Shown piece by piece: positions 9,842-38,089 of a DNA stretch of 64,000 nucleotides. The notes under the pieces were generated by a model that was not told the origin of the DNA, did not search any database, and saw only the letters and a program-made list of their open reading frames with translations. The translations under genes were made by a program, and so were the position numbers. Origin of the DNA: Brevibacillus sp. SYSU BS000544. GTDB lineage: Bacteria > Bacillota > Bacilli > Brevibacillales > Brevibacillaceae. The number at the start of each line of letters is the position of its first letter. Within the stretch, counting starts at the first letter, position 1. The stretch spans positions 7,885 to 71,884 of the forward strand of contig NZ_JBNCMT010000002.1 of the NCBI RefSeq assembly GCF_049846925.1, given 5' to 3'.

Positions 9842-9845
9842 AGAT

Positions 9846-12655: not shown

Positions 12656-12665
12656 ACATACCGAG

Positions 12666-13355: not shown

Positions 13356-13440
13356 TTCCCCAACGAGGCTTGTCGTGTGGAAAAGCGGTACTCTCCTGTC
13401 TCCTCCTCGCACACATAGTATAACCCGATACTGATTCCTA

Positions 13441-13478
13441 AATTCGAAAACCCGCCTCTGCATTTGCAAAAGGCGGGC
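13441..13478 (-). terminator. Rho-independent terminator of the Gly/Thr-rich protein gene
   Basis: Stem cccgcc/ggcggg followed (minus strand) by ttttcgaatt. Confidence 0.55.
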
Positions 13479-13494
13479 TACTGGTTGCAAAGAT

Positions 13495-13905
13495 TTACCG
13501 TTGAGGTTCTCTGTTGTCTCTTCTGTTGCGCATTCCGGCTAATCCTGCCAGACCTAACAAGCCAAGCCAGCCCCAGTCAACATCATTGTCGCCAGCAGCA
13601 GCCCTTGTGCCATAACCATTATTATTCGTACCAAACGTACCATTATTGGTCATACCAGTTCCATTTGTGCCGTATGTGCCATAGGTGTTGTTGTAACCTG
13701 TCGTACCCGTTGTACCTGCTGTTGTACCAGCAGAGCCTCCGGTTGTCCCATAAGTGTTATAGCCTGTCCCTGTACCCGTCGTAAAACCTGCGCCGCTTCC
13801 ACCAACCCCTACGCCTGCTCTTGTACCACCTGTTTCAGCGTATGCTGAAGCACCCATTGCCAACATAAGCACCATTACAATAACTGACATTCTGGTTTTT
13901 TTCAT
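13495..13905 (-). CDS. Secreted low-complexity Gly/Thr/Asn/Tyr-rich protein with a C-terminal hydrophobic segment and basic tail
   Basis: Signal peptide MKKTRMSVIVMVLMLAMGASAYA; ~90 aa of GT-rich repeats; C-terminus DVDWGWLGLLGLAGLAGMRNRRDNREPQR. Confidence 0.5.
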   Translation of the reverse strand: MKKTRMSVIVMVLMLAMGASAYAETGGTRAGVGVGGSGAGFTTGTGTGYNTYGTTGGSAGTTAGTTGTTGYNNTYGTYGTNGTGMTNNGTFGTNNNGYGTRAAAGDNDVDWGWLGLLGLAGLAGMRNRRDNREPQR

Positions 13906-14059
13906 AATGAAAACTCAACCCCTTTCTTAGGTCTATTCAACTTATTTCCTAGGTTGAGTTGGATTATTCATTCCCCTCCACCCCTTTGAGCGCTTTCTTC
14001 CATAATGTGCCGTGTGGTATAATCGCTAAATTACAAACCACGTGTGTTGGAGGGTCTTC

Positions 14060-14536
14060 ATGCTTACATTTGAAGAAAAAACTGCTATCATTGAATCTTT
14101 TCCAGAACTGCAAAAAAAAGCCGTATCGCTCGGCCGAGTAAACTACCAGTTTGAGGAAAGCAAACACGAAAAGAAAAATGTGGTATATCATCTGCATCCG
14201 AATGGAAACGGGTTCGTTTATGCAGGACTGATTCGCGGATATAAAACAGATGACAAGGGCTTCGTAAATATCCGTGACTTTTCTGCTGATGCCTTGCAAA
14301 AATTGATTCGCTCATCCATTCAATCACTTTCTGAACCGCCTCGGACAGAAGCAGAAGAAGCGATTATCGGAGAAGGACAGGAGGAACGCTGGGCTGGACC
14401 CGACAATCAGACCCTGATCCTGCTGAACGAGGATGAGTGGTGGAACATTTACGCCGGGTTGAATCTGGAGGAGTCTTTCGGTTCGTATGAAGAGGCGACA
14501 CAATATCTGGAAGAAGAAGGGTTTACTCGAATATAA
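14060..14536 (+). CDS. Hypothetical cytoplasmic protein (158 aa)
   Basis: ORF with a GGAGGG ribosome-binding site 5 nt upstream of ATG 14060. No recognised domain. Confidence 0.45.
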   Translation: MLTFEEKTAIIESFPELQKKAVSLGRVNYQFEESKHEKKNVVYHLHPNGNGFVYAGLIRGYKTDDKGFVNIRDFSADALQKLIRSSIQSLSEPPRTEAEEAIIGEGQEERWAGPDNQTLILLNEDEWWNIYAGLNLEESFGSYEEATQYLEEEGFTRI

Positions 14537-19423: not shown

Positions 19424-19456
19424 AAAAAAAAATCCCTCCGAAGTTGGAGAGATTCT
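19424..19456 (-). terminator. Rho-independent terminator of the tat/moaA/molybdoenzyme operon; degenerate copy of the repeat-borne terminator
   Basis: aaaaaaaaatccctccgaagttggagaga on the plus strand. On the minus strand this is a hairpin followed by T9. Confidence 0.65.
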
Positions 19457-19461
19457 AACGA

Positions 19462-20187
19462 TCAAGCAATCTCTATCGTTCTTTGATAGATCTCTTGTTT
19501 CCTGATCACCAAATTTGAAAGAAAGATACTCAGTTCATACAAAAGAACAAGAGGGATACAAACGATTAGATCAGAAATAACATCTGGTGGCGTAATCATC
19601 GCACTTACGATAAACAAGAGAAAATAGGCGTATTTGCGATATTTCCTCAGGATGTCTGGATGTAAAATATGGATCACTGTCAGAAACATCACCACCACAG
19701 GAAGTTCAAAAACGCCAGCTACAGGAATCACAATCCCCAACAAAAAGGATATATATTTATCCAATCCATACATTTGTTGTATTTCCATGTGCATATTTAA
19801 CGAGTTGGTAAACAGAAGTACCATGCGGAACACGACAAAGTAGCCAAATAGCATTCCTATCGCAAACATACATGCTGAAAAAGGGACGTATTTTAAGGCT
19901 GCTTTTTGTTCTGATTTTTTCAGTCCTGGTTTGACAAATGCCCAAAGTTGATACATGACATAGGGCGCTGTAATAATAAGCCCCAGCGAAAAGGATAATT
20001 GCATATAGATACTCAACACGTCTCCTGGAGAAAAAACGTTCCATACCACCTTGATTGGCGCTGTTCCTTGGAGCAAGGACAAAAAACCAGGCGTATAATA
20101 CAAACTAATTATCATTGATAAAACGAGTACAATGCCAATCCGAATGAGCCGCTTACGTAATTCACCGAGATGATTAACAAGAGACAT
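19462..20187 (-). CDS. tatC: Twin-arginine translocase subunit TatC
   Basis: N-terminal LVNHLGELRKRL and 6 TM helices; ribosome-binding site AGGAGGG. Confidence 0.85.
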   Translation of the reverse strand: MSLVNHLGELRKRLIRIGIVLVLSMIISLYYTPGFLSLLQGTAPIKVVWNVFSPGDVLSIYMQLSFSLGLIITAPYVMYQLWAFVKPGLKKSEQKAALKYVPFSACMFAIGMLFGYFVVFRMVLLFTNSLNMHMEIQQMYGLDKYISFLLGIVIPVAGVFELPVVVMFLTVIHILHPDILRKYRKYAYFLLFIVSAMITPPDVISDLIVCIPLVLLYELSIFLSNLVIRKQEIYQRTIEIA

Positions 20188-20191
20188 GACA

Positions 20192-21190
20192 TTACCCTCC
20201 TATTTGGGACATGCTTCTTACGGTCATCGAATCTTCATGTGTCAGCATATAGGCTTTTGACATTTCATGAGACTCTGGCTTTTGGTTTAGTACTCGGTGA
20301 ATCATTTCTATCATGTCAGTTTCGCTATCTATCCATTTTCGAATGTAGGATTCGTCGTTCCAAAACAAGCATCCTTTGAGATAGCCATCGGACGTTAAAC
20401 GCAGGCGATTACAGGAATGGCAGAAGTGATTGCTTACCGCATGAATCAAACCAAACTGCCCCTTTGCTCCGTCGATCTTGTAATACCTGGCTGGTCCATT
20501 TGCATTTTCTGCTTGCACTGGCCTTGCATTCCAATCATGCATGTGACAAGTTTGGATCACCTGATCTAGTGGTAGAAAACCATTCTTCCAAGGTTTCAAG
20601 GACCCAATTGGCATATACTCAATAAACCGGACGTGTATGGGCAAAGTGATACTTAATCGCAAGAAATCAGCTATCTCATCGTGATTGACACCATCGATCA
20701 AAACCACATTCACTTTAATTGGACTGATACCAATCCGCTGACACTCATCGATGCTATTTAGTACACGCTGAATATCTCCACCACGAGTTATCATCGAATA
20801 TCGTTCTGGCTTTAGCGAATCCAGGCTGATGTTCACTCGTTTTAGCCCTGCTTCTTTTAGTTTTTGGGCTTTTTTAGCCAACAATAGTCCATTGCTTGTC
20901 ATTGAAATATCTCGAATCGTAGGAATAGAGGCCAAACTTGCCACTAATGACTCCACATCAGGACGGAGCAAAGGTTCACCTCCTGTCAGGCGGACTCGCG
21001 AAATCCCCATTTTAGCCATGACCCGAACAACCTTCACAATCTCCTCATTCGTCAATAACGATTGATCGGGTAGAAATGATGTCCCTTTCGGAGGCATGCA
21101 GTACATACAACGTAAATTGCATCTGTCCGTAATTGATATTCGTAAATAATCATGCACTCGCCCAAATGAGTCAACCAGCTTTCCTGACAT
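20192..21190 (-). CDS. moaA: GTP 3',8-cyclase MoaA (molybdenum cofactor biosynthesis protein A)
   Basis: Radical-SAM CNLRCMYC cluster motif, C-terminal second cluster cysteines, and full-length MoaA similarity. Confidence 0.9.
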   Translation of the reverse strand: MSGKLVDSFGRVHDYLRISITDRCNLRCMYCMPPKGTSFLPDQSLLTNEEIVKVVRVMAKMGISRVRLTGGEPLLRPDVESLVASLASIPTIRDISMTSNGLLLAKKAQKLKEAGLKRVNISLDSLKPERYSMITRGGDIQRVLNSIDECQRIGISPIKVNVVLIDGVNHDEIADFLRLSITLPIHVRFIEYMPIGSLKPWKNGFLPLDQVIQTCHMHDWNARPVQAENANGPARYYKIDGAKGQFGLIHAVSNHFCHSCNRLRLTSDGYLKGCLFWNDESYIRKWIDSETDMIEMIHRVLNQKPESHEMSKAYMLTHEDSMTVRSMSQIGG

Positions 21191-21225
21191 AATCCTCACC
21201 TATTCCTGCTAGTTCAGCCATAATT

Positions 21226-21423
21226 TCAAATCTTGCTGCTTTCAGAAGACTCCTTGTGAACTGGTTTTTCTTCATCCGCCATCATTTCTTTGGCACTTGA
21301 CTTAAACTCTCGTAACGTTTTGCCAAAGGCACGTCCAAGCTCTGGAAGTTTCGATGGGCCAAAAACCAACAAAGCAACGAACAAAATCAGGATCAACGTT
21401 CCAGGTCCAATATTTTGTAACAT
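21226..21423 (-). CDS. tatA: Twin-arginine translocase subunit TatA/E
   Basis: 65 aa with a TM helix plus amphipathic helix (…LVFGPSKLPELGRAFGKTLREFK…). Confidence 0.8.
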   Translation of the reverse strand: MLQNIGPGTLILILFVALLVFGPSKLPELGRAFGKTLREFKSSAKEMMADEEKPVHKESSESSKI

Positions 21424-21441
21424 ATCAATTCCTCCCTATTC

Positions 21442-22500
21442 TTAGATCAGGCTGGATTCTGACTGAAACAACACTTCAGCGGGATGTTCCACAAGCGAAA
21501 TATTCTTTTCCCAGCAAACTTCTCTACACAAGCCACATTCTACACATGTAGCTGGTTGCAATCTGATTTCTCTTCCTAGCCCATTTTCCGTTTCTATCAT
21601 GCGAAGTGCTTGCGTCGGACAGAGAATGGTGCATGCTCCACAGATATCACATGAATCGTTTATTACTGGCAACTTGACGGTCATCCGTTGCATAAGGTTC
21701 TGATCCTGCTGTAGTTGATGCAACAATATTTTTCGTCTTTCCACATAGGTGTATCGTGATTCTCTCAGGATTTTTTCTACTATTTCTGCTTTTTTCTGCC
21801 GGATTTCCTCTGGTATTTCTGATATCTCAGCTAGTCTCTGTTCCTGTGTCTCACCAAGAATCTCTTTGAATACTTCCTTACCTGATTCTTTGAATTCATG
21901 AAGTGCAAATTGCAAAAACTGACGACGGCTACTATCGTAGGCATAGTCCCTGTCTATTTTCTCTACGGAAAAATATCGAGTTGCTTTCTTCTCGCAGAGG
22001 GTTTCCGCACGCCCCAACTGTTCGCTCCAAACCCGCTCACCTGTTGTAACCTCACACGTTTGACAACTTCCTTCTGGTAAATAAATAGAAAGCGAAGGAG
22101 AGGTAAGCAGCATTGACATCCAGACTTCCCAAGGAATTACTGCTAAACAAGGCACCTTCAAACCTACTATCTGTTCAGGAAATAACTGCTTGGAACAGGT
22201 AATATAAACTCTGCCTTCATCCACAAATTGACGTTCTGTTTGCTCCAGCATTCGTTTAAAGGAGGGGCGCTTCCAAGAAAATGCGTTGGTTGGACAAACC
22301 ACTCCACAGATTCCACATTCCAGACAGTCTGTCATCACGATCTCTTTGGCTGTTAATCTGATACTGTTTGAAGGGCAGTTGTCCATACAAAGCGTACAGG
22401 TACTTGCCGTTGATTTTAGCCGAGTGCAAACTTCCTTTTGAATCTCCACAGGTGACGCGTGTCGCTCGAACGCATTCATCAATTTAAACAAGTTAATCAT
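21442..22500 (-). CDS. Polyferredoxin-like 4Fe-4S cluster protein (352 aa) linked to the molybdoenzyme operon
   Basis: Motifs CTLCMDNCP, CLECGICGVVCP, CQTC, CDICGACTILCP and CVECGLCREVC; ribosome-binding site AAAGGAGGG. Confidence 0.6.
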   Translation of the reverse strand: MINLFKLMNAFERHASPVEIQKEVCTRLKSTASTCTLCMDNCPSNSIRLTAKEIVMTDCLECGICGVVCPTNAFSWKRPSFKRMLEQTERQFVDEGRVYITCSKQLFPEQIVGLKVPCLAVIPWEVWMSMLLTSPSLSIYLPEGSCQTCEVTTGERVWSEQLGRAETLCEKKATRYFSVEKIDRDYAYDSSRRQFLQFALHEFKESGKEVFKEILGETQEQRLAEISEIPEEIRQKKAEIVEKILRESRYTYVERRKILLHQLQQDQNLMQRMTVKLPVINDSCDICGACTILCPTQALRMIETENGLGREIRLQPATCVECGLCREVCWEKNISLVEHPAEVLFQSESSLI

Positions 22501-22530
22501 GGCTGCACCCTCCTTTCTTCGAACATACGT

Positions 22531-23337
22531 CTATAAATGAACCGCCGTTGTATAGAACAAGATTCTTCCTAACAACTCACTTATCATCAGCAACAAAAAC
22601 ATGAGACTACAGGTAACTGTATTATTGCTTTTGCTCCCTTTGATCGTTGGAAGAAGCATGGCTAGCACTACACCCAATAAAGCCATGCGAATCCAAAACA
22701 TGCCACTGTTTACGATCTGAACGCCAGACTGTGCCGCTTGTTCCAATCCAGAGAATAGAGAGGTGAGGTAAACAACTAGAAATATGACGGACAAACCCGT
22801 ACTGACCAGGGTAATACGTGAAAAGTCAAAGTTTTGCTCTTTTCTCCATTGCAGGACAGCTCCTACAAAAATGGGTCCCAACAGGATTGACGTCAGAAAA
22901 AAGGAGAGTGTCGTTGACCCGCTGTTCCATGCTGGAATCGCTGGAATCGTATAAATCATCGCAGAGGAAAAAATCGTCCCTGCTCCGAACAGAGTAGCTA
23001 AAGCACCAACTGTTTTTCGATTGGCAGGGCGGTCTGCTTTCCAAAAATAGCAATACATCAGACTGAACAGTATGAATATTGCATATACAGTAACCTCGCG
23101 ACTTAGCCAGGACTCGCCAATATTAAGAATCGCCCGATACGCTTCCAACGGATGCCCCAAGTGAAATAAGGAGATTAGCACTCCGACGATTGCAATGCCA
23201 GCAATTACAGAACTGATGGTAAAGCCAGATGAAACGGAAATTTTTTTGCCTGTTATCTCCAGCAGCCATAAGGTCACAAGTGCACCAATTGCAACCTGAG
23301 ATAAAACAGTGAAGAGTACGAGTGGAAAGTCATGCAT
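22531..23337 (-). CDS. DmsC-family membrane anchor subunit of a DMSO-reductase-family enzyme
   Basis: 8 TM helices. N-terminus HDFPLVLFTVLSQVAIGA and C-terminus ELLGRILFYTTAVHL resemble E. coli DmsC (WPLMIFTVFGQCVAG...GELIGRGVFYGLHMTV). The ATG overlaps the upstream TAA (TAATG). Confidence 0.75.
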   Translation of the reverse strand: MHDFPLVLFTVLSQVAIGALVTLWLLEITGKKISVSSGFTISSVIAGIAIVGVLISLFHLGHPLEAYRAILNIGESWLSREVTVYAIFILFSLMYCYFWKADRPANRKTVGALATLFGAGTIFSSAMIYTIPAIPAWNSGSTTLSFFLTSILLGPIFVGAVLQWRKEQNFDFSRITLVSTGLSVIFLVVYLTSLFSGLEQAAQSGVQIVNSGMFWIRMALLGVVLAMLLPTIKGSKSNNTVTCSLMFLLLMISELLGRILFYTTAVHL

Positions 23338-23897
23338 TACACGTCCCTCCTTACTTGCTTTCCTGTTTTCGGTAGGATAAATCGAGTAGTCGGGTGGGTA
23401 ATGGCCGTGTTAGCAAATCCAGCGACAGATACTTCGAGGTTGGCTCGATTTTCCTTCTCCAAATCAATCACTTCTAATGCATCCATTGGACATTTGGATA
23501 CACAGATGGGTTGTTTTCCTTCATCCTGCAATTGATAGCACATGCTGCACTTGTCCATTTTCTTCGTTGTATTGTTAAACTGCGGGACTTTGTAGGGACA
23601 AGCCTTGGCACACATTTTACAGCCAATACAGAGACTAGGATCGTGGACGACAATGCCATCCTCTCGTTTGGTATACGCTCCGACAGGGCACGCTTTTTTG
23701 CATGCAGGATCATCACAGTGATTACACGCAGAAGACAGATATGCTCGTGTAGGAGACCCGGTTAATAGCTCTGGCAACTCTCTTACGGTTCGACGGCTCA
23801 TGTCAGGTTCCAACTGATAAAAGCTTTTGCATGAAATCTCACAGGCATGACAACCGATACAGCGATCAATGTTAACTACAAATGCTTTTTTAGCCAC
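23337..23897 (-). CDS. DmsB-like 4Fe-4S electron-transfer subunit
   Basis: Four ferredoxin cysteine clusters in DmsB order (CIGCHACEISC…CNHCDDPACKKACP…CIGCKMCAKACP…CSMC…CVSKCP). Confidence 0.85.
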   Translation of the reverse strand: MAKKAFVVNIDRCIGCHACEISCKSFYQLEPDMSRRTVRELPELLTGSPTRAYLSSACNHCDDPACKKACPVGAYTKREDGIVVHDPSLCIGCKMCAKACPYKVPQFNNTTKKMDKCSMCYQLQDEGKQPICVSKCPMDALEVIDLEKENRANLEVSVAGFANTAITHPTTRFILPKTGKQVRRDV

Positions 23898-23910
23898 CTC
23901 CTATCCCCCC

Positions 23911-26124
23911 TTATGCTTTTTCGATGTTTACGAAATTATCGTGGAATGCAATTCCGGGCATCCCTGTTTGATAGGTTCCCATATCAGCCGGGATGGCTTT
24001 CACGGTAAAATTCACGTTAAAATCCTGATCTTTGTACCATGCTTCGTATACCGCTACTGTGTCCTTAGGCACATTTTGGGTAATCTTGGCTGGCACAATA
24101 ATGTATCCGATATCGTTAAACATTTTGACATTATCGTTTTCACTGATCCCTTTTTCTTTCGCTAGTGATGGGTGAATTTCGATAAACGGCTTGTTATTAA
24201 TTTTCTCTACCCAATCAAGATTCTGGAATTGGCTATGAAGACCAAATTTCCAGTGCGGTGAGATGCAGCGAATCGGATACGCCTCGGGTGCTTGAAGCTC
24301 TTCGAGATAGACTGGGAGCTGATGATTATTAAATTCAGTCGCCTTTTCAGACCAGAATTCATACTTACCAGATGGTGTTTTGAATTGATTGTCTTTCCAT
24401 TGGATTTCCATCCCTTTTGCTTTGGCAGTTCCCGTTTTATACAGGTCTTTCCAGTCGTTTAGTCCAAACATCTGATAAATACCATCATTAAATTCTTTGC
24501 CTACCCACTCTTCCAAATTACCTGACGTTGGGTACGTACATGATCCGGGTTCGATTTCATTCATTTTTTTGGACAATCCCATCGCAATTTCTACATCGCT
24601 CTTGGCTTCATACATTGGTTTGATCGCCTGTTGGTTGATATTAATCCAATAGTGCCAGTAGCTTACATTTACACCCCAACTCTCGAATGGAGTCGTAACG
24701 GGCAGCACCAGATCAGACATCTTTACGGTATTGGTCATAAACATGTCTGCGGTAACAATGAAATCCATCTGCTCAAATGCTTTTTGTACAACTTGCGTTT
24801 CCGGATCTTGGGAAAGTGGATTACGACAGGCGATCCACAGCATTTTGATCGGCGGCTCTTTTGCCGCTAATACCTCGGCGCCAAAATTATTAATGTTGAT
24901 GGCACGATCCTTTTCTCCCCCGCTTCCCTTTGGAGCCTTTTGGATCATCGCATGGTAATTGAAGCCCCATGTCGTAAGTTGTGCGTAGTTAGCGCCACCG
25001 CCTAAAACTCCTATGTTGCCGGTCAATGCAGCCAATGCATCAATCGCCCTGACGTTGGCCCCACCATTGGTATGACGCTGCGATCCGTACCCAATCCAGA
25101 TATTTGCCGGTTTTGCTGTGGCATATTCTCTCGCCAGGCGCTCTATTACTTCAACTGGTATACCTGTTTTTTCAGATGCCCATTCTAGCGTTATATTGGT
25201 TTTCACATAATCCAAAAACTCTTTGTATCCTTTGGAGTGCTGCTGCATCCAGTTCTCATCATACAGCTTGTGATCAATAATATATCGGGCCATGCCTAGC
25301 GCAAGCGCACCATCCGTACTCGCCTTGACCTGGATATATTCATCCGCTTTGGCTGCCGTCTGCGTCAGAATAGGATCAATGACAACGATCTTGCACCCTT
25401 TTTCTTTTGCTTTCTCAATAATGCTCATCGAGTGCACGGCACACCATGCAGGATTTGCTCCCCAGACGATCAGATACTTGGCATGTACCATTTGTTCTGG
25501 ATCGGCATTGGCGATTGTCCCCATATCATACGCCTGCGAATCAATTCCAGCAGGCCAGCAAGGAGTTCCTGTCGCTCTGGTGGTATATCCGATGCTGGAC
25601 AATGTACCTTCCACCCCATAATTGAGGATGTTGAAGTTGCCAGAGTATTTGTTTAAACAAATCGGAAGTGTGCTGCCATACTCTTTTTTAATTGCGAAAA
25701 TCTTTTCGGCAATGATTGTAAAAGCTTCGTCCCAACTGATCCGCTCCCACTTGCCGCTGCCTCTGCCGATCTGACGCATGGGATACTTGATGCGATCTGG
25801 CGAATAGACCATCCTTGGATAGGTGTTCCCTTTGATGCACAGCTTCCCGTTTGTATAAGTGTTGTTTTCATTCCCGGTTACAAAAGTTATCGTGCCGTCT
25901 TTTACCGTTGTTATCATTGAACAGGTATCATAGCAATTTCGCGGACATGCATTGAAAAATGTTTGTTCAGCACCCTCCGCTCCCGCTTTCTGTGGAGCAA
26001 GGCCCAGAAATTCATATTCTTTGGAGAATTTCAATCCAAATAAAGCACTAACGGTAGCTCCCACAGTTCCTGTCACTTTTAAAAAGCTGCGTCTGGATAT
26101 TTTATTGTCATTCATCGGGCTCAT
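23911..26124 (-). CDS. Molybdopterin (bis-MGD) oxidoreductase catalytic subunit, DmsA-like, Tat-exported
   Basis: Twin-arginine signal ISRRSFLKVTGTVGA; N-terminal Fe-S motif CPRNCYDTCSM; molybdopterin oxidoreductase domains; ribosome-binding site AAAGGAGGG. Confidence 0.85.
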   Translation of the reverse strand: MSPMNDNKISRRSFLKVTGTVGATVSALFGLKFSKEYEFLGLAPQKAGAEGAEQTFFNACPRNCYDTCSMITTVKDGTITFVTGNENNTYTNGKLCIKGNTYPRMVYSPDRIKYPMRQIGRGSGKWERISWDEAFTIIAEKIFAIKKEYGSTLPICLNKYSGNFNILNYGVEGTLSSIGYTTRATGTPCWPAGIDSQAYDMGTIANADPEQMVHAKYLIVWGANPAWCAVHSMSIIEKAKEKGCKIVVIDPILTQTAAKADEYIQVKASTDGALALGMARYIIDHKLYDENWMQQHSKGYKEFLDYVKTNITLEWASEKTGIPVEVIERLAREYATAKPANIWIGYGSQRHTNGGANVRAIDALAALTGNIGVLGGGANYAQLTTWGFNYHAMIQKAPKGSGGEKDRAININNFGAEVLAAKEPPIKMLWIACRNPLSQDPETQVVQKAFEQMDFIVTADMFMTNTVKMSDLVLPVTTPFESWGVNVSYWHYWININQQAIKPMYEAKSDVEIAMGLSKKMNEIEPGSCTYPTSGNLEEWVGKEFNDGIYQMFGLNDWKDLYKTGTAKAKGMEIQWKDNQFKTPSGKYEFWSEKATEFNNHQLPVYLEELQAPEAYPIRCISPHWKFGLHSQFQNLDWVEKINNKPFIEIHPSLAKEKGISENDNVKMFNDIGYIIVPAKITQNVPKDTVAVYEAWYKDQDFNVNFTVKAIPADMGTYQTGMPGIAFHDNFVNIEKA

Positions 26125-26136
26125 TTCCCTCCTTTA

Positions 26137-26757
26137 TCATTGGTAAAATAGCCTCTCCTGCTCAACCTCCAAAACTCCTTCCAAGAGATACGCCATTGCC
26201 TGACAAATTCGATTCTCAGCGTGTTTGTGAATATTTTCACAAAACTCCTTAAACCAAACCAAAAGATGTTTCTCTAGGAACTCTTTATACTGGTCAGGAA
26301 ATCCCTCTTCGGCATGAGTGGCAAGCAGGTAACAAATAAACTCTAGTTCCAAAGCAAGATGATCATCCGGCTCCATTCCCTTGTTGGCTACCTCTACACC
26401 TGCCTGTGAATAAAACAATCTAACCTGCAAGGTCTCCCTTTGCATCAATGTTTTTTCGGGGTTTCGGTAGCTTGATTCATACGGTGAAGCAAGCAGCTTG
26501 TCTGGTCCAACAAAGAGCCTATTAAATTCATACTCCACTTGCAGTGCATCTTCTTCTTGTATTCCAAGCAATAAATCAATGCATTTCCATATTTTCTGAC
26601 TAGGTAAAAGCAGTTGATACGCCTCTATGCTTGTGCAAATTTCCTTCCAATCTTGCGCACTCCACTTCAATGAACGCCCTGCATAAAAGTTCTGAAGGAT
26701 CATGAACATGCGAAAACACTCTTCCAGATGCTGGCTATACGTGTGGTTTGGTAGCAT
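26137..26757 (-). CDS. TorD/DmsD-family molybdoenzyme maturation chaperone (putative)
   Basis: ~200-aa all-helical protein immediately upstream of the Tat-dependent catalytic subunit; ribosome-binding site GGAGGAGAG. Confidence 0.55.
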   Translation of the reverse strand: MLPNHTYSQHLEECFRMFMILQNFYAGRSLKWSAQDWKEICTSIEAYQLLLPSQKIWKCIDLLLGIQEEDALQVEYEFNRLFVGPDKLLASPYESSYRNPEKTLMQRETLQVRLFYSQAGVEVANKGMEPDDHLALELEFICYLLATHAEEGFPDQYKEFLEKHLLVWFKEFCENIHKHAENRICQAMAYLLEGVLEVEQERLFYQ

Positions 26758-27009
26758 CCTTCTCTCCTCCAGTACCCTGTTTTTGAAGCTGTTTCGATTG
26801 TTGCATCAGAGCATCAAACCGTTTTTGCTGTTCATCCGTAATTTTGACCTTTCTTTCCACAATTGGCTTGGCTATTCCCTGATACTCTAAGTTGGATGAT
26901 CTGCTTTCAATTAGCGCACTCTCTGACTTTGCAGGCTGATTCGTGCACGCCGTCATCACCAGAATAGAAAGTACCAGGCAAGAATAAATGATCATCTGTT
27001 TACCCCGCA
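26735..27009 (-). CDS. Small putative lipoprotein/secreted protein (~90 aa)
   Basis: MRGKQMIIYSCLVLSILVMTAC signal with a lipobox-like TAC. Start inferred. Confidence 0.35.
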
Positions 27010-27173
27010 TTTTCTCACCTCCTGTTTCTAGTGAAATCGTATCACCTGCCCCACTGTACAAATGAACATGTTTGAAGGAGGCAGGGTGTGAATCTATCAC
27101 ATTTCGGTGTGCAAGATTGGGTGTTGTTCATCATTTGCACAAAAAAAAGCTACAAGTTTTAGAACTTGCAGCC

Positions 27174-28754
27174 TCATGTTACTATTTGAGAAATTTTAAG
27201 TGTGACAAAAACATTTAACAAATCTTCATACGAATTCAGGCTGATATCCAGTAGGCTTTCAATCTTCTTTAACCGATTTCGCAGCGTATTGGGATGAATA
27301 TAAAGAGAGTCAGAGGTTCGAGAAATATCTCCATTTTCCTGAACATACACTTCAAGCGTTCGAACCAATTCTCCATCATGCTCACGATCATACTCCAGTA
27401 ATTCTCCAAGGGTTTCTTTGAAGAATGTAATGAGAACATCGTTGTTAATGAGACAAAGTAACCGAATCACACCAATCTCTTCAAATAAAAATACGCCTTT
27501 TCTTTTCTGAAGAAATCTGCCCATTTCCAGTGCAATCTTCGCTTCCTGAAAACTCCGAAAAATCTCCAGGTTGGATCGATACAAACGCCCAATACCAACC
27601 GTAATCCTTACATCGGGAAACTTGCCTGCCAGTACCTGCTGAATTTGTGTTGCAAGGTATTTACTGAAATCTTTTCTTTCTTTTTTGGACTGTTTCTTTT
27701 CATCAAAAACAAAGACAACCACTTGATCCTGAAAATTTGTAACGATACCTGTAAGAGCCTGTGACTGGAGGATGAAGGTAATTTGATGCTTCATACTCTC
27801 CAAGAGTTCCATACTAAGGGACTGATCATTTTCGGAATGTAATTGCAGCACCATCAGCAACGGCTGCTTGGTAAAATTCCATCCCCAGAGTTTTCCTTGC
27901 GTAATCAACATCTCTTCCGATTCAAAATTGTTATACAAGACATCATAAAGAAACTGATTGGCGTATTTTCGATTCGTCTCAAGTATCGCTTCTTCTTTCT
28001 TAAACCAGGTCACGAGGCTTGGCAAAACCTGATGAACCAGTTCAATGGTCATATCAGTAATGGTTCCTCGCTCTTGTTTGATCAACAGGAATCCGTGGTT
28101 TTCCAGTTTGAACAGCAGAAACGATTCTTGTTGTTCTTGCAATAAACGGTAATCGTCTTTGGAACCGTTTCTCATCTGTACGTACCTTTGCTTCAAAAAT
28201 GTGTATTGATCCGAACCATCTACGGAGGGCATGGAAGAATGCAAAAAGAAAAAGGGGTCCAACAAGACAACTGGATTGTCGATGATCTCTGACAAACGAT
28301 CCAGCACTTTCTGGATATGATTCTCATTTATCATCGTGAGCCAGTATCTGGTCGATTGTTCCCACGCATACCGAAATAGTCCTAATTGCTTTAGTTTTTT
28401 CATTTCCTCAATCGTGCGAATGATGGAATCAAGGTCTGTATTGTCGAGAAACAGGACTGGTTTGTGTACCTCTTTGATTTTATCAAGTAGACTTGGACGA
28501 ATGTATTTTTTATCCAGATGGTAGAGTAAGACTCCCTGAATATAATCATGGTTTACTATCTCTGGAAGTTTTTGAATGTTTTCTTGCGATACTTCAAGAA
28601 TCAGCAGCGTTTGCCTCTTTACTGCTTGCAGATTTGACGCTACATCAATAAAGAAATTACCTTTTCCTGACCATCCACTAAGTATCTCAGCTTTCTGAAA
28701 AGGGTGCGCAATAATTAGCTCTTGAAAAGTCATCGTTGTTTCCAAATTACTCAC
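27174..28754 (-). CDS. PucR/CdaR-family transcriptional regulator
   Basis: 526 aa with a C-terminal PucR-type helix-turn-helix (…YIHPNTLRNRLKKIESLLDISL…). 4-nt overlap (ATGA) with the upstream 4Fe-4S gene. Confidence 0.75.
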   Translation of the reverse strand: MSNLETTMTFQELIIAHPFQKAEILSGWSGKGNFFIDVASNLQAVKRQTLLILEVSQENIQKLPEIVNHDYIQGVLLYHLDKKYIRPSLLDKIKEVHKPVLFLDNTDLDSIIRTIEEMKKLKQLGLFRYAWEQSTRYWLTMINENHIQKVLDRLSEIIDNPVVLLDPFFFLHSSMPSVDGSDQYTFLKQRYVQMRNGSKDDYRLLQEQQESFLLFKLENHGFLLIKQERGTITDMTIELVHQVLPSLVTWFKKEEAILETNRKYANQFLYDVLYNNFESEEMLITQGKLWGWNFTKQPLLMVLQLHSENDQSLSMELLESMKHQITFILQSQALTGIVTNFQDQVVVFVFDEKKQSKKERKDFSKYLATQIQQVLAGKFPDVRITVGIGRLYRSNLEIFRSFQEAKIALEMGRFLQKRKGVFLFEEIGVIRLLCLINNDVLITFFKETLGELLEYDREHDGELVRTLEVYVQENGDISRTSDSLYIHPNTLRNRLKKIESLLDISLNSYEDLLNVFVTLKISQIVT

Positions 28755-29317
28755 TCCCTCTCATCTTGTGCCCAGAAACGTTGTGATTGTACCTTTTTTT
28801 CTTTGAAACGAATAGAAGGACAAGTAATGGATTTCATCTGATAGGAAACGATTGCTTTTTGGTGCCCGGAGTTTTGCTCGCTGTTGATGTCGATGACCTG
28901 AATTGCACCCACAATGCATGATGAGACACAAGCAGGAAGCTCTCCCGACCTCTGCCTTTCCATACAAAAATCGCATTTGTCTGCTTTTCCCGTATCAGGA
29001 ATGATCGTTATTGCGTGAAACGGACAGGCATTGACGCATAACTTGCAGCCCGAACAGTTGCTTGAATCTAGCAGAACAATCCCATTCCGAGTCTTTTTAA
29101 TGCATGCAGTCGGACAAACAGACAAACAAGCAGGATTTTGACAATGGTTACAAGCGATTGACAGATAGCCGAAGATGTTTCCGTCATTTTGAGAAAGTGA
29201 AACCACTTTTCGTCGAGAGGTATCCTTTCGATTCCTTTCGTTTTTACAGGCAAATTCACAGGTTCGACACCCGATGCATTTTTGTGTATCAACCAAGAAA
29301 CCTAGCTGTTTTTCCAT
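28751..29317 (-). CDS. Second DmsB-like 4Fe-4S ferredoxin subunit
   Basis: CIGCRTCEFAC…CNHCQNPACLSVCP…CSGCKLCVNACP…CDFC…CVSSC. Confidence 0.8.
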   Translation of the reverse strand: MEKQLGFLVDTQKCIGCRTCEFACKNERNRKDTSRRKVVSLSQNDGNIFGYLSIACNHCQNPACLSVCPTACIKKTRNGIVLLDSSNCSGCKLCVNACPFHAITIIPDTGKADKCDFCMERQRSGELPACVSSCIVGAIQVIDINSEQNSGHQKAIVSYQMKSITCPSIRFKEKKVQSQRFWAQDERE

Positions 29318-29440
29318 GGGTAGCCCTTCAATTCTTCTCTGTCATGTTGGTTGCTAAAAATCTATCGTTAGTATACTATTAGCACGAATAATTGAGCGGC
29401 ACATATATTACAGATTGTTGAATCCTAAGGGGGTCAAAAC

Positions 29441-31525
29441 ATGCTCGAACCTTATACCGTAACCAGACATGTTTGCCCTCGCAACTGTTATAGTTCCTGC
29501 AGCATGCTAGGCTATTCCACTGATGGCATCCTTCAGAAAGTAGGAGGAGACCCTCTCCATGGCTACACAAAAGGAAAGCTCTGCCCCAAAGGCTTTAACT
29601 ATGTAAATCTCGTTTATCACCCTGAAAGAATCAAACACCCCATGATTCAGGAAAAGAGAGGCAGCGGCAAGTGGCGCAAGATTTCATGGGACACCGCTTT
29701 GGATATTATTTCTGAGAAAATCATTGAACTCCACCATCGCTATGATTCTCACCTGTCTCTTGCTCTGAATAAGTACTCAGGCAATTTCGGCATCTTGCAT
29801 CAAGCCGTAGAAGGAATGTTTAACAGCCTTGGTAAAACTTCAAGAGCAATCGGATCACCCTGTTGGTCACCAGGACTGGATGCCTTTCATTTTGATTTTG
29901 GTTGGCACCAAACATCTGATCTAGAAGATTTGATTCACGCCAAAACGATCATTCTCTGGGGTGTCAATCCGGTATGGACCTCGATTCATGCGCTTCCCTA
30001 TTTGTATCAGGCTAAAGAAATGGGCGCCACACTTATCACGATTGACCCAGTTTACACGGCAACTGCACAGAAATCCGATTTGTATTTTCAAGTGAAGCCA
30101 GGCAGTGACGGGGCTTTGGCACTTGCAATCGCCAAATACATCATTGATCATCAATTGCAAGACATGGATTTCATTGAAAAAAATACGGTTGGCTGGGATG
30201 AATGCAAAGCATATGTCGATTCCTTTCCAATGGAAGAGGCATTGCAAACGTGCGGTCAAACACTTGAAGCCATCAAGGAATTATCCTATCGGCTGATAGA
30301 AGGAGATCCTGTTTTTATTTGGACTGGATTCGGGTTACAGCGGCATGTACATGGTGGCCAAAGCATTCGAGCAATCAATGCTTTAGCAGCTATCACTGGG
30401 AATATTGGACGAAGAGGAAGTGGAGTACACTTTGCCAATGATCCCCAATGGAAGTTCACCTCAAACATTACAAAACACTTTCCGGATCATGTGGATCAGA
30501 ACAATTGCATCCGTCCGATTGACATTAATAACTTTGCAAAAGAGCTTCTTGGCCTGCAAGACCCTCCCGTGAAATTTCTCTGGATTTCTTGTCGCAACCT
30601 GTTAACCCAAAATCCGGATCGAGCTGTACTGATTCGGGCACTCCAATCATTAGAGCTGATTGTGACAGTCGACCTGTTCCTAACTCCCACAGCACAGTTA
30701 TCCGACATTGTCCTTCCTACCACAACGAATTTTGAAGAGTGGGATATTGTTTCAGGATACTGGCATCATTGGATCAGTATCAATCAGCCAGCAATCCCTC
30801 CTTATCACGAAAGTAAAAGTGATTTACAGATTGCCAAACTCTTATCCCAGAAATTAAATGAAAAGTCTCCCGGACTGTCTTCGTTTCCGACAGAAAAAAC
30901 GCCCATTCAATTTATTGAGGACGAATTTACTGATGAAATATATAGAGATCTGCAAATTTCTCAATGGACAGATCTTCTCAATGGCCCTAGAAGGAAACCT
31001 AGCCCCAATACAGCTTGGGAAAATTTACAGTTTGGCACTCCTTCTAAAAAAATTGAGCTTTATTCTCAATCGGCTGAAGATAGTTCCCTTCCGCCACTAG
31101 CTATGTATGTTCCTGCTCAGCAAGGAAACCAGAAATATCCCTATCGTCTGTTGATCACTCATGAACAATATCAAATCAATTCTCAATTTATTAATATTTA
31201 CTCGCTTCACGCAATCAAAACTGAACCGCACGTACTGCTTCACCCTGCGTTAGCAAAAGAAAGAAATATTGAATTGGGTGACATGGTGCGAATTTACAAC
31301 AATGATGGAGAGATGGTGATTAAAGCCAAGATTTCCTCGAGTGTAAGTAAATATACCCTACAAATTGCTCATTCGAATAACTTGCCCGTAAACAATCTGA
31401 TTTCGTTTATTCCTGCTGATATGGGAAAAGCAGTTACAGGTGCAAATGGTGTAGCGCTGAACGATACTTTTGTTGCTATTGAAAAGCTTGACGACATCAA
31501 ACTTGTCGAGTTACACCATCGTTAA
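29441..31525 (+). CDS. Second DmsA-like molybdopterin oxidoreductase catalytic subunit lacking a Tat signal (predicted cytoplasmic)
   Basis: Begins directly with the Fe-S motif VCPRNCYSSCSM at residue 12. Paralogous to 23911-26124 (KISWD…LNKYSGNF…). Ribosome-binding site AAGGGGG. Confidence 0.8.
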   Translation: MLEPYTVTRHVCPRNCYSSCSMLGYSTDGILQKVGGDPLHGYTKGKLCPKGFNYVNLVYHPERIKHPMIQEKRGSGKWRKISWDTALDIISEKIIELHHRYDSHLSLALNKYSGNFGILHQAVEGMFNSLGKTSRAIGSPCWSPGLDAFHFDFGWHQTSDLEDLIHAKTIILWGVNPVWTSIHALPYLYQAKEMGATLITIDPVYTATAQKSDLYFQVKPGSDGALALAIAKYIIDHQLQDMDFIEKNTVGWDECKAYVDSFPMEEALQTCGQTLEAIKELSYRLIEGDPVFIWTGFGLQRHVHGGQSIRAINALAAITGNIGRRGSGVHFANDPQWKFTSNITKHFPDHVDQNNCIRPIDINNFAKELLGLQDPPVKFLWISCRNLLTQNPDRAVLIRALQSLELIVTVDLFLTPTAQLSDIVLPTTTNFEEWDIVSGYWHHWISINQPAIPPYHESKSDLQIAKLLSQKLNEKSPGLSSFPTEKTPIQFIEDEFTDEIYRDLQISQWTDLLNGPRRKPSPNTAWENLQFGTPSKKIELYSQSAEDSSLPPLAMYVPAQQGNQKYPYRLLITHEQYQINSQFINIYSLHAIKTEPHVLLHPALAKERNIELGDMVRIYNNDGEMVIKAKISSSVSKYTLQIAHSNNLPVNNLISFIPADMGKAVTGANGVALNDTFVAIEKLDDIKLVELHHR

Positions 31526-32114
31526 CATACAAAAAAATCCCTCCGAAGTTCGGAGAGATCCAAATAAAAACGCCCTATCGATTATATAGGGCAGAGGTTT
31601 GTACGTGATAGATACAGTATATTCATCTTAAGCAATATACTCAATAGTGATATATAGGTATTTAAACCTTATAATAGCAAAAAAAATTGGCTGCTCACCC
31701 TGCGAATTTTGAGCGCCAATTTATTCCCCAGATCGGGTTGTACTAGATACTACCCTATATTATAGTTTTCGTAAAATTTATATTGGGGTTATATAGGTTT
31801 TTACTGGTAATTCATCGATTTTTCCTAACATACAAAAAAAAATCCCTCCGAAGTTCGGAGAGATCCAAATATAAACGCCCTATCGATTATATAGGGCGGA
31901 GGTTTGTACGTGATAGATACAGTATATTCATCTTTATCAATATACTCAATGGTGATATATAGGTATTTAAACCTTATAATAGCAAAAAAAAAATTGGCTG
32001 CTCACTCTGCAAAATTGGAGCGCCAATTTATATCCCCAGATCGGGTTGTACTAGATACTCCCTATATTATTGTTTTCGTCCAATTTATATTGGGGTTATA
32101 TAGGTTTTTACTGG
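31526..32114. repeat. Tandem direct duplication of a ~303-bp non-coding unit, two copies ~95% identical; each copy carries two terminator-like hairpins and several TATATAGGG palindromic motifs
   Basis: Copy 1 is 31526-31828 and copy 2 is 31829-32114, both beginning catacaaaaaaa(aa)tccctccgaagttcggagagatcc...; near-identical by direct reading. Confidence 0.85.
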
Positions 32115-32146
32115 AAAATTGCTATATTCAATACATCGAACCAATC

Positions 32147-34903: not shown

Positions 34904-36304
34904 TTAGCGAAACAGAATGAGAATTTGGTTCGGTCCGGTTCGTCTCATCACCCAATACCCGCTTTCTGTATTTGTAGCGATCCCGCCATCGCTGGGCAGG
35001 CAATAGCCGCCTACGAAACAAGTCCCGTCATCTCGGACGAGAAGCTTTCCGATTAGACCAACCGCTGCCCATTCCGGTCGATCCATACGAGATCGGCACG
35101 GTTTCTCCGGTTCCCAGAATGGATTGATTACAGGTCGTCTCTCGGTCCTCTCTGGAGCGAGAATTCTACCATCCTGATCAGTAACGGCTGGAAAAAAGAC
35201 ATCCTCGTACTGCTTGCGGTTCCATTCATCGAGCAGGAATTTGCCACAAGCAGGATCTTCCACATCGGCTAGATACCCTGGATTGGAGCTAGTCACTCCC
35301 AGAATGTAGCTATCACTTGCAGTTGCCTTACGAATTTTCTCACTACCACTGGCAAACGTCACGAAATAGCCTACGTCTATCAGCTCTCCGTTAGAAGATT
35401 CAAACATCTCTGCAAAGTCGCAGGCACCTGCGGAAGTGATTACTCCAGCCGTGGTTACCGTTGAATCGAAACAGGCGGTTCCGTTACTTTGGATTTTGGC
35501 GACGACACCCGCTGTAGAATACTGAGAAGGACCGTTCATCAGATACCAGGAAAAGGGCAGATCACCGCCAGCAGGGTTAGGCTGCCCGTCCCTCCCCATG
35601 ACATGGACACCTTGCAAGCCATTGGTGGCAGTAAAAAAGCCTTCTGCATGGGATTGGGCTGCGTCTGCCCTTGTATTGCTTCCTTGCGCATGAGAAGAAT
35701 TACCGGAAGCCTCCGTTGAACTACCCTCTGCATGAGCTGCAAAAGCTGAAGCAGTGGTAAAAGATCCCTCTGCATGAGCAGTGAAACCTGTAGCTTTCGT
35801 TGCACTACCCTCCGCATGAGAAGATACACCACTCGCAGTTGTCGTCTCACCCTCCGCATGAGCAGCAGAACCAGTAGCCTGGGTAAAAATGCCCTCCGCA
35901 TGGGAAAAATCACCGCTGGCAATCGGACCTGGGAAAAATTCAACATTGTTTGAACCCCCTTCCGCATGAGATGCAAATCCGCTGGCTCTAGTACCAACCC
36001 CTTCTGCATGAGATCCATTTCCGCTTGCTATTGTCTGGAAACCTTCCGCATGGGATGCCTCACCACTTGCTTTCGTAAGTTCTCCCTCGGCATGCGAGCC
36101 ATTCGCCTCAGCAATGGTTTGGTATCCTTCTGAATGAGCAGTCACACCAATGGCAGTAGTTTGATACCCTTCTGCATGCGAGGCTTCACCAAACGTAATC
36201 GTAAGTTCTCCTTCCGCATGGGACGCAGGCCCGCCTGCTGTAGTATTGTTCCCTTCCGCCTCCGAGCACGGACCAAAAGCGTTATTATTGCATCCATCTG
36301 GCAT
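34904..36304 (-). CDS. SHAEG-repeat protein A: conserved Cys-containing N-cap, ~13 copies of a 14-residue [AS]HAEGxxTxA[ST]Gxx repeat, conserved ~230-aa Cys-containing C-terminal domain; no signal peptide
   Basis: Direct reading of the translation (466 aa from MPDGCNNNAFGPC). Ribosome-binding site AAGGATGA; tandem with two paralogs. Confidence 0.75.
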   Translation of the reverse strand: MPDGCNNNAFGPCSEAEGNNTTAGGPASHAEGELTITFGEASHAEGYQTTAIGVTAHSEGYQTIAEANGSHAEGELTKASGEASHAEGFQTIASGNGSHAEGVGTRASGFASHAEGGSNNVEFFPGPIASGDFSHAEGIFTQATGSAAHAEGETTTASGVSSHAEGSATKATGFTAHAEGSFTTASAFAAHAEGSSTEASGNSSHAQGSNTRADAAQSHAEGFFTATNGLQGVHVMGRDGQPNPAGGDLPFSWYLMNGPSQYSTAGVVAKIQSNGTACFDSTVTTAGVITSAGACDFAEMFESSNGELIDVGYFVTFASGSEKIRKATASDSYILGVTSSNPGYLADVEDPACGKFLLDEWNRKQYEDVFFPAVTDQDGRILAPERTERRPVINPFWEPEKPCRSRMDRPEWAAVGLIGKLLVRDDGTCFVGGYCLPSDGGIATNTESGYWVMRRTGPNQILILFR

Positions 36305-36354
36305 AGGAATCATCCTTTCTTTTGTTGGCTTATCAGCGTTATCCTAACTTTGCA

Positions 36355-38049: not shown

Positions 38050-38089
38050 GCAAAGCGCCTCCTTTATTGATAAGGCTTGTAAGTAGTTT

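Follow-up and report, generated by a model that had tools for sequence, protein, structure and literature searches.

The 64,000-nucleotide stretch of the Brevibacillus sp. SYSU BS000544 genome analyzed here (contig NZ_JBNCMT010000002.1, positions 7,885 to 71,884; hereafter the window, whose first nucleotide is position 1) carries a molybdoenzyme island of 12 genes in which two DmsAB-like gene sets lie side by side. One set encodes a catalytic subunit with a twin-arginine translocation (Tat) signal, A1, together with the ferredoxin-type subunit B1 and a DmsC-family membrane anchor. The other encodes the signal-less paralogue A2 and its partner B2, and adjoins the gene for a regulator of the PucR family. 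Our comparisons indicate that A1 and A2 form part of an uncharacterized DmsA-like clade with hybrid features rather than being DmsA proper, and that PucR is the conserved partner of the predicted cytoplasmic pair and not of the exported enzyme. The genes are real and conserved, but they are not rare: the cluster is common, and each of its parts belongs to a known kind.

Gene content and transcription units

A six-frame list of the open reading frames (ORFs) of the window, combined with Pfam and NCBIfam profile searches, confirmed the gene inventory given in a preliminary description of this DNA: 12 of 12 genes are present at their coordinates, and each domain call was borne out (Table 1). A single public assembly, a Logan contig (SRR33145512), was found to contain the exact proteins. 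The preliminary description had drawn a single long operon on the minus strand, with pucR as part of it. Because a terminator-like hairpin sits right after pucR, this strand is better read as two predicted transcription units, B2-pucR, which would stop at its own terminator, and lipoprotein-torD-A1-B1-dmsC-polyferredoxin-tatA-moaA-tatC. The TAATG coupling of B1 and dmsC and the terminator beyond tatC were both found in the sequence. The overlap of B2 and pucR had been given as ATGA and needs correction, as the junction reads GTGA (a GTG start over the TGA stop), or else pucR starts at the TTG, which lies five bases past the B2 stop and has a better Shine-Dalgarno spacing than the GTG alternative.

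Table 1. Genes, hairpins, and candidate operators of the island (window coordinates; aa, amino acids)
Feature	Position	Strand	Evidence or remark
tatC	19462-20187	-	TIGR00945, 178.3 bits (cutoff 132.7); also matched by Pfam TatC
moaA, GTP 3',8-cyclase, step one of molybdenum cofactor (Moco) synthesis	20192-21199	-	TIGR02666, 387.9 bits (cutoff 284)
tatA	21226-21423	-	NF011430, 96.8 bits (cutoff 62)
Polyferredoxin, 352 aa, predicted cytoplasmic	21442-22500	-	Fer4 domains at both ends
dmsC, membrane anchor with quinol site	22531-23337	-	Pfam DmsC (PF04976)
B1, DmsB-type subunit	23337-23897	-	Fer4_11; 16 Cys
A1, Tat-exported catalytic subunit of the Mo/W-bis(pyranopterin guanine dinucleotide) (bisPGD) type	23911-26124	-	RRSFLK; predicted metal ligand Cys189
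torD, chaperone of the TorD/DmsD/NarJ family	26137-26757	-	Pfam Nitrate_red_del, 109.6 bits
Small lipoprotein, about 91 aa	26735-27010	-	Lipobox VMTAC; overlaps the torD start; first gene of the exported-enzyme operon
pucR, PucR/CdaR-family regulator	27174-28754	-	HTH_30 and GGDEF_2; likely start TTG 28745
B2, predicted cytoplasmic DmsB-type four-cluster ferredoxin	28751-29317	-	Tightly coupled to pucR
A2, signal-less A1 paralogue	29441-31525	+	Same FS0 motif as A1; predicted metal ligand Cys141
Intrinsic-terminator-like hairpin, end of the long operon	19429-19456	-	3' of tatC
Terminator-like hairpin	27146-27175	-	Directly 3' of pucR; splits the two minus-strand operons
Hairpin 3' of A2	31531-31561		Near-identical to the tatC terminator; opens a 305-bp tandem duplication
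Perfect palindrome TAGTATACTA, candidate operator	29369-29378		Divergent B2-pucR/A2 promoter region; unique in the window
Palindrome TGTGA-N5-TCACA, candidate operator	27087-27101		Precedes the lipoprotein gene, within the long-operon promoter region; unique in the window

Exported and signal-less catalytic subunits

As first described, one catalytic subunit (A1, with RRSFLK) is predicted to be exported and one (A2) to stay in the cytoplasm, and both assignments hold. The first cluster Cys of A2 is preceded by 11 residues, an in-frame TAA lies at positions 29426 to 29428, five codons upstream of the start, and an AAGGGGG ribosome-binding site stands ahead of the ATG. The region from 29318 to 29440 has stops in all three frames and an RR motif in none, and the short N terminus is kept in about 38 genomes. 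A hidden Tat signal upstream of A2, concealed by a misannotated start codon, is ruled out by the in-frame TAA, the stops in three frames, and the conserved short N terminus.

The same division runs through the homologues. All A1-type proteins have RRxF[LI]K and 47 to 75 residues before the FS0 motif, and all A2-type proteins have 7 to 29 residues before it, none of them with an RR motif. Identity is 42% between A1 and A2 and 38% between B1 and B2. A 42-sequence alignment has about 85 columns that are the same throughout both catalytic clades, among them the FS0 cysteines, KYSGN, C-W, YWH, and DMG. In a neighbor-joining tree rooted on Escherichia coli DmsA, a distance tree without bootstrap whose deep branching order is not reliable, the Tat forms make up a monophyletic group, with the signal-less forms branching off below it. 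Within the Bacillales and the Negativicutes, the A1 and A2 subtrees of this tree have the same shape, as would be expected if the pair was inherited together. We take the signal-less form to be a real and apparently old lineage.

Enzyme class and metal ligand

Both catalytic subunits carry the Fe4S4, Molybdopterin, and Molydop_binding Pfam domains, all above cutoff, and so belong to the Mo/W-bisPGD (dimethyl sulfoxide [DMSO] reductase or MopB) superfamily. Their FS0 motif is C-x3-C-x3-C with an Asn before the second Cys, spaced as in DmsA, NarG, and PcrA; it reads CPRNCYxxC in the A1/A2 clade versus CTVNCGSRC in DmsA. At the ligand column, Cys is present in 58 of 58 family members and Ser in E. 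coli DmsA (YGDYSSAQ), and Cys141 of A2 aligns with Cys173 of PsrA. To our knowledge, characterized enzymes with a C-x3-C-x3-C FS0 use Ser or Asp, a Cys ligand accompanying the x2 spacing, and we know of no characterized representative that combines a DmsA/NarG-type FS0 with a Cys metal ligand.

The profile scores agree with a position next to the DmsA family rather than inside it. The best full-length profile is dmsA_ynfE (TIGR02166), with 298 bits for A1 and 248 bits for A2 against a cutoff of 777.7, and the DmsA, YnfE, and YnfF exception models give A1 and A2 150 to 235 bits against about 1600. The Nap and Nas profiles score 106 and 240 bits (cutoffs 904 and 1100), and none of the curated NCBIfam cutoffs is reached by A1 or A2. 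We keep the clade apart from DmsA because its ligand is Cys instead of Ser and because no family cutoff is reached. The term "DmsAB-like" used in the preliminary description is thus apt for the architecture, but A1 and A2 are not DmsA proper, with that ligand and with scores far under the DmsA/YnfE cutoff. The same description had considered placement in a characterized clade with a conserved operon; the operon architecture is indeed widely conserved, but the clade is uncharacterized. Two other candidates were rejected: the Xsr sulfate reductases of Salmonella with the DmsA_EC clade, which retain the Ser ligand (conserved in Salmonella DmsA and Xsr1-3A; PMC13524816), and the NaoABC antimonite oxidase of the Symbiobacteriaceae, whose A subunit is NapA-like and whose C subunit is of the Rieske type.

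No close solved structure for A1 or A2 was found in the PDB, by sequence or by fold. The AlphaFold model of A2 (pLDDT 88.9) has MtsZ, PcrA, DorA, and TorA as its best Foldseek matches, and its TM scores with MtsZ, PcrA, DorA, TorA, FdhF, PsrA, and ArrA range from 0.75 to 0.83 at 16 to 22% identity. By sequence, the best PDB match of A2 is PsrA. This match, the Cys ligand, and the rank of PhsA as the fourth-best NCBIfam match of A1 would suit an enzyme pair that reduces inorganic sulfur compounds such as thiosulfate, polysulfide, or tetrathionate. The Psr/Phs/Arr/Ttr group does share the Cys ligand, but its FS0 has the x2 spacing (C-x2-C-x3-C and not C-x3-C-x3-C), its anchor is PsrC/NrfD and not of the DmsC family, and its profile cutoffs are not reached, with 254 bits for A1 on PhsA lying far below 694. 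Rhodanese or sulfurtransferase genes do not recur in the neighborhoods of related loci either, and we consider a role in inorganic sulfur reduction very unlikely.

The reduction of metalloid or halogen oxyanions (selenate, tellurate, antimonate, arsenate, or [per]chlorate) is also unlikely, if less so. The exported enzyme would then respire the oxyanion, and the cytoplasmic one would handle oxyanion that enters the cell or carry out the next reduction step. PcrA is among the best structural matches of the A2 model, and homologues with 55 to 69% identity are present in respirers of such oxyanions, namely the two Desulfuribacillus species and Anaerobacillus. The Cys ligand is as in the Arr, Ttr, and Srd clades (PMC7331816), and under selenate Desulfitobacterium hafniense induces a dmsABC-like operon (PMC3306737). 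On the other hand, two of the profiles give low scores, 114 bits for ArrA (cutoff 1600) and 72 bits for TtrA (cutoff 1750), the FS0 spacing is unlike the Arr, Psr, and Ttr type, and the clade is frequent in organisms without such physiology (rumen and gut bacteria, soil Bacillales, acetogens). Clustering of neighboring genes showed no recurrence of ars or other resistance genes.

Partner subunits and accessory proteins

B1 and B2, of 186 to 188 aa, each have four complete Cys groups (16 Cys) and a Fer4_11 domain, and score 138 and 125 bits on the DmsB-type profile TIGR02951, below its cutoff of 214. B1, with its four [4Fe-4S] motifs and no signal peptide of its own, is presumably coexported with A1. 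The anchor matches PF04976 with 122.8 bits (cutoff 22.3) over profile positions 5 to 273 of 275 and, along its whole length, shares 28% identity with E. coli DmsC. The TorD-like chaperone scores 72.5 bits on both the DmsD and the TorD equivalog, against cutoffs of 162 and 132. The small protein encoded first was rightly called a lipoprotein, since its lipobox is conserved in all Bacillales homologues, in which its gene is the first of the exported operon throughout.

The polyferredoxin, which has no signal peptide, contains two dicluster domains and 20 Cys that are invariant in 18 homologues. Four of these (C102, C118, C146, and C149) lie outside the four CxxCxxCxxxC(P) groups and are invariant in 18 of 18. 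Because 20 Cys are enough for five clusters, this suggests a fifth cluster; it would lie in the central domain, which has no match to known families. The polyferredoxin stays with TorD and A1 even in two loci where A2 is absent, just as NapF is found beside NapD. For this reason we assign it to the exported enzyme, in whose maturation it may act as NapF does or to which it may deliver electrons.

Distribution of the module

A scan with one genome per species yielded more than 550 relatives; we examined the best 79 loci and annotated their ORFs against the 12 proteins of the window. A conserved module emerges, consisting of TorD-A1-B1-DmsC, usually followed in the Bacillales by the polyferredoxin, and adjoining PucR, B2, and signal-less A2. 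It is present in Brevibacillus, Neobacillus, Niallia, Bacillus, Robertmurraya, Anaerobacillus, Salipaludibacillus, Sporomusa, Pelosinus, Selenomonas, and Thermincola and, in another gene order, in Moorella, Desulfosporosinus, Desulfitobacterium, and Paradesulfitobacterium. Only the exported set was found in the Desulfovibrionaceae, Desulfobacteraceae, Chloroflexota, Nitrospira, Citrobacter, and Superficieibacter. The arrangement had been thought unusual; an exported set with a signal-less A/B pair and PucR in fact recurs in dozens of genomes of the Bacillota (Bacillales, Negativicutes, and Clostridia). About 4400 of 8000 scored database candidates match A1 at an E value of 1e-20 or below. The combination of a Cys-ligated DmsA-like clade, a pairing of enzymes outside and inside the membrane, and a PucR tied to the inside enzyme was not found described in open-access text. 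A Desulfitobacterium proteome paper is silent on DMSO, Tat, and PucR.

In an unbiased clustering of neighboring ORFs, recurrence was limited to A, B, PucR, TorD, DmsC, and the polyferredoxin; no recurrent transporter or further Moco genes were found beside the module. The closest named genome is that of Brevibacillus ginsengisoli (locus L075 of the survey), where A2 is 89% and A1 94% identical and the stretch reaching from the polyferredoxin through A2 is collinear at 86% DNA identity. A metagenome-assembled genome (MAG) of the Bacillota (L011, positions 8046 to 14455) carries two signal-less A, B, and PucR triads back to back beside one exported set, with A2 at 8046 to 10094 and a second A at 10139 to 12190, followed by B and pucR.

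The Tat genes and moaA

TatC, TatA, and MoaA all score above their curated cutoffs, and by this measure TatC and TatA amount to a minimal TatAC translocase. The genes are therefore present as first described, but the claim that they make the pathway self-contained does not hold. MoaA provides the first Moco step only, no other Moco genes were found in the window, and the nearest relative is without tatA-moaA-tatC: in B. ginsengisoli, a LysR-type regulator and a 142-aa ORF take their place (L075 positions 1 to 1886 versus window positions 19462 to 21440). A MAG of the Paenibacillaceae (L002) has moaA and tatA at this place. Among the 79 related loci, tatA, tatC, and moaA are found nearby in 6, 2, and 3, respectively. 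Bacillus subtilis has cargo-linked TatAC pairs, TatAdCd with PhoD and TatAyCy with EfeB, and since such pairs are a known habit of Bacillus, Tat genes beside their cargo are nothing out of the ordinary.

PucR and candidate operators

PucR has an HTH_30 domain (71 bits) and a GGDEF-like domain (56 bits), both above cutoff, and residues 1 to 275 match no Pfam family. AdeR and CdaR match only its C-terminal half (AdeR with 87 bits against a cutoff of 700), and PucR falls in none of the curated equivalogs AdeR, CdaR, and Rv1453. With a profile of 17 homologues, positions 149 to 250 give a weak match (E = 0.0055) to the GAF-like domain of SpoVT; a single-sequence structure model was unusable (pLDDT 40).

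The linkage of pucR is clear. It lies within 10 kb of the signal-less A gene in 35 of 38 loci that have one, and it was found in 1 of 38 loci with only a Tat form, a locus that has a truncated second A at a contig edge. The order B then pucR holds in 26 loci, with ORF-based gaps or overlaps of about 0 to +18 bases in most, and triads of PucR, B, and signal-less A occur in three loci (L023, L046, and L049) without an exported set within 10 kb. PucR thus tracks the cytoplasmic pair, and not one long operon as first supposed.

This linkage also bears on another reading, compatible with the one that we prefer, in which A2B2 is mainly a sensor: the Mo/FeS pair would sense substrate or redox state and pass the signal to PucR, which would then activate the exported reductase. 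The juxtaposition of B2 and pucR for translation, the near absence of PucR from loci with the exported set alone, and the N-terminal PucR domain that matches no known ligand-binding family are all in line with this, as are the triads. Yet A2 retains every cofactor motif and the invariant positions that it shares with A1, as for an active enzyme, the stand-alone triads equally argue that A2B2 has a job of its own, and regulators are often cotranscribed with a single subunit, which need not mean that the two are in contact. We consider a mainly sensory A2B2 distinctly unlikely. Taken further, and with odds just as long, A2B2 and PucR would be a self-standing ancient cytoplasmic unit, with a molybdoenzyme as sensor or obligate partner of a transcription factor and the enzyme class itself novel. 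This unit would stand alone in some Clostridia and in most Bacillota would be coupled to the exported sister, so that the cell carries out and monitors the same chemistry on either side of the membrane.

PucR-family regulators usually govern the catabolism of organic nitrogen or carbon compounds, which could speak for an organic substrate that is hydroxylated, dehydroxylated, or hydrated, as by pyrogallol transhydroxylase, acetylene hydratase, or the gut catechol dehydroxylases. Among the relatives matched are the cytoplasmic AB-type pyrogallol transhydroxylase (4v4c) and acetylene hydratase (2e7z), the latter with a Cys ligand. These matches rank lower, however (77 to 124 bits), catabolic genes or transporters do not recur nearby, and the exported, DmsC-anchored version resembles a respiratory terminal reductase. 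Of the alternatives that we weighed, an organic substrate has the slimmest chance.

Two palindromes are candidate operators. The one in the divergent promoter region, TAGTATACTA, would be expected 0.01 times by chance in the window, and palindromes of the type TATAC..GTATA stand at the matching position in Neobacillus, Niallia, and Bacillus loci. The TGTGA-N5-TCACA palindrome of the long operon would be expected 0.11 times; both half-sites are kept in B. ginsengisoli and, with one mismatch, in the Paenibacillaceae MAG, with differing spacers. It is not a canonical Fnr box, as its spacing is N5 and not N6. Within torD, its 3' part contains a perfect palindrome of the Crp/Fnr type, TGTGAATATTTTCACA (26226 to 26241), about 100 bases upstream of the A1 start. 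It is the only exact TGTGA-N6-TCACA in the window, and this frequency is within chance. The same motif was seen directly upstream of A2 or torD in Robertmurraya, Bacillus massiliigorillae, and Salipaludibacillus.

Proposed function

We propose that the island encodes a menaquinol-linked extracytoplasmic reductase of a small oxo compound and a cytoplasmic sister enzyme, under the control of PucR, and we give this reading a probability of roughly 0.55. The sequence gives firm support for two enzymes, a Tat-exported, DmsC-anchored terminal reductase made up of A1, B1, and DmsC, which presumably oxidizes menaquinol, and a cytoplasmic sister with the same cofactors. The operon running from about 27010 to 19462 would produce this outward-facing enzyme. 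A1 would receive its cofactors in the cytoplasm while held by the TorD-like chaperone, with MoaA raising the supply of Moco and the polyferredoxin, with its predicted five clusters, possibly aiding this stage of maturation in the way NapF does for NapA. After pairing with B1, A1 would be exported with it in folded form through the adjacent TatA/TatC and dock on DmsC, where menaquinol would be oxidized. Electrons would then pass from DmsC over the four clusters of B1 and FS0 to the metal center, and the oxo compound would be reduced outside the cell. The small lipoprotein may be a conserved accessory of the exported enzyme.

The second module, B2-pucR and the divergent A2, would produce A2B2, which is predicted to be a cytoplasmic sister enzyme with the same cofactors, having many invariant residues in common with A1B1. 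It may reduce the same or a related membrane-permeant substrate inside the cell with low-potential electrons, serving as an electron sink or in repair or detoxification, as BisC does beside DmsABC or Nas beside Nap. PucR, whose N-terminal half may be a family-specific sensor, would be the dedicated regulator of A2B2 and, through the palindromes in both promoter regions, probably controls the exported set as well.

The preliminary description had held that the substrate cannot be assigned from sequence, and after our analysis there is still only a leading guess. Tentatively, and with somewhat less than even odds, we favor an S- or N-oxide, such as DMSO, trimethylamine N-oxide (TMAO), or methionine sulfoxide, because the best profile (dmsA_ynfE) and the fold matches point there and the FS0 type fits. 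Since no transporter recurs beside the module, a permeant or extracellular substrate would fit as well. A further reason is that DMSO induces a possibly related cluster of two DmsAB pairs with one DmsC and one DmsD in Moorella thermoacetica: the reported log2 fold change is 3.2 to 4.6 (10- to 24-fold), and a benzyl viologen:DMSO reductase activity accompanies the induction (Rosenbaum et al. 2022, as cited in PMC13391211).

Several points weigh against this proposal. A Cys ligand is typical of enzymes acting on sulfur, arsenic, selenium, nitrate, or formate, and the known S- and N-oxide reductases use Ser. The relatives of A2 in the PDB are all about equally distant from it, no demonstrated substrate for any member of the clade was found in the open-access literature searched, and no electron donor was identified for A2B2. 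No M. thermoacetica protein is among the top 120 matches of the A1 of the Moorella caeni type, in which the 92% match is from a metagenome contig. The operator assignments are based solely on palindromes and footprints, and an Rfam search found no Moco riboswitch or other Rfam family in the island. The gene order of the M. thermoacetica cluster differs from that of the island, with a radical-SAM gene between the two pairs (PMC13391211).

Whatever the substrate may be, the clade is very common, occurring in soil Bacillales, acetogens, organohalide respirers, rumen Selenomonas, gut Desulfovibrio, and Citrobacter, and the names that databases give its members, "DMSO reductase," "TMAO reductase," or "selenocysteine-containing dehydrogenase," are untested labels. 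The Cys ligand, the linked outside/inside pair of the Firmicutes, and the PucR of the inside enzyme offer experimental handles. A reporter for PucR would allow a screen for inducers, and Brevibacillus and Neobacillus, being facultatively aerobic, should be genetically easier than strict anaerobes. A module that reduces DMSO or TMAO would bear on the volatile sulfur and nitrogen compounds of soils and guts, and one that reduces a metalloid oxyanion would be relevant to bioremediation markers.

Flanking DNA

Between A2 and the next genes shared with B. ginsengisoli, the window has about 9 to 11 kb that are absent from that species. A noncoding tandem duplication of about 305 bp (31531 to 32142, units 31531 to 31835 and 31836 to 32142, 94 to 97% identical) is placed between A2 and a convergent gene of 223 aa. 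Each unit contains a promoter-like site (GTGATA-17-TATAAT) and three hairpins, of which two are strong and the third is imperfect; no Rfam family matched the duplication at gathering score. Its first 29 nucleotides, AAAAATCCCTCCGAAGTTCGGAGAGAT, recur as the tatC terminator (19426 to 19453), and near-identical hairpins in the same orientation thus bracket the whole 12-kb island. Their position at both ends suggested an insertion of the island by site-specific recombination, but the cluster is collinear with that of B. ginsengisoli and the hairpins resemble ordinary terminators.

Further downstream (34904 to 39940), three tandem paralogous genes encode proteins of 469, 583, and 616 aa with YadA-head-like repeats of the [S/T]HAEG type followed by a Peptidase_G2 autoproteolytic domain. 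The G+C content is raised here (0.515 versus about 0.44), and no DNA similarity to this segment was found in the corresponding B. ginsengisoli region. On the other side of the island, the window contains type I restriction-modification genes (5184 to 7798) for an HsdS specificity subunit and an HsdM methylase and four consecutive ORFs of 130 to 164 aa (12312 to 14536) without a Pfam match.

Comparison with known systems

E. coli DmsABC and YnfEFGH are Ser-ligated reductases of S- and N-oxides and selenate. The island resembles them in its A subunit with a Tat signal, signal-less four-cluster B subunit, DmsC-family anchor, TorD/DmsD chaperone, and C-x3-C-x3-C FS0, with 29% identity to the E. 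coli protein for A1 and 28% for DmsC. It differs in the Cys ligand in place of Ser and in proteins that are about 75 residues shorter. The lipoprotein, the polyferredoxin, the Tat and MoaA proteins, and the cytoplasmic paralogous pair are additional here, and the proposed regulation by PucR would take the place of the Fnr/ModE/NarL scheme known for E. coli.

Sister Mo-bisPGD enzymes with the same chemistry on opposite sides of the membrane are known from periplasmic NapA and cytoplasmic NasA/NasC and from DmsABC and BisC, and the nap operon pairs the Tat chaperone NapD with the cytoplasmic polyferredoxin NapF. In contrast to the present module, however, those enzyme pairs are not known to be encoded as one conserved unit with a shared regulator. 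The TatAC pairs of B. subtilis provide a parallel for a minimal translocase encoded beside its cargo in a member of the Bacillales; here moaA lies between tatA and tatC, and the linkage is absent even from the nearest relative.

The exported half on its own has a counterpart in Citrobacter, where torD-A-B-C has the same gene order, a Tat signal, Cys at the ligand column, and an A subunit 51% identical to A1, but neither a cytoplasmic paralogue nor PucR. In Citrobacter youngae (L073, 6717 to 14011), these genes are inserted between ahpCF and uspG. This is the place that we take to be that of STM0610-0613 in Salmonella, with STM0611 as the presumed orthologue. STM0611 is listed as a molybdopterin-dependent Tat substrate and "putative oxidoreductase" of unknown function.

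The two-pair cluster of M. thermoacetica is likewise from a member of the Bacillota, and it resembles the island in its two adjacent A/B pairs, single DmsC, and single DmsD. Its order is dmsD-A3-B3-(radical SAM)-A2-B2-dmsC, so that the arrangement and the intervening radical-SAM gene set it apart, and PucR is not reported there (PMC13391211). The same source describes both A/B pairs as induced together and the reductase as membrane bound and menaquinone linked. Two Moorella genomes of the caeni type contain clear members of the family described here, in the order A1-B1-dmsC-A'-B'-pucR.

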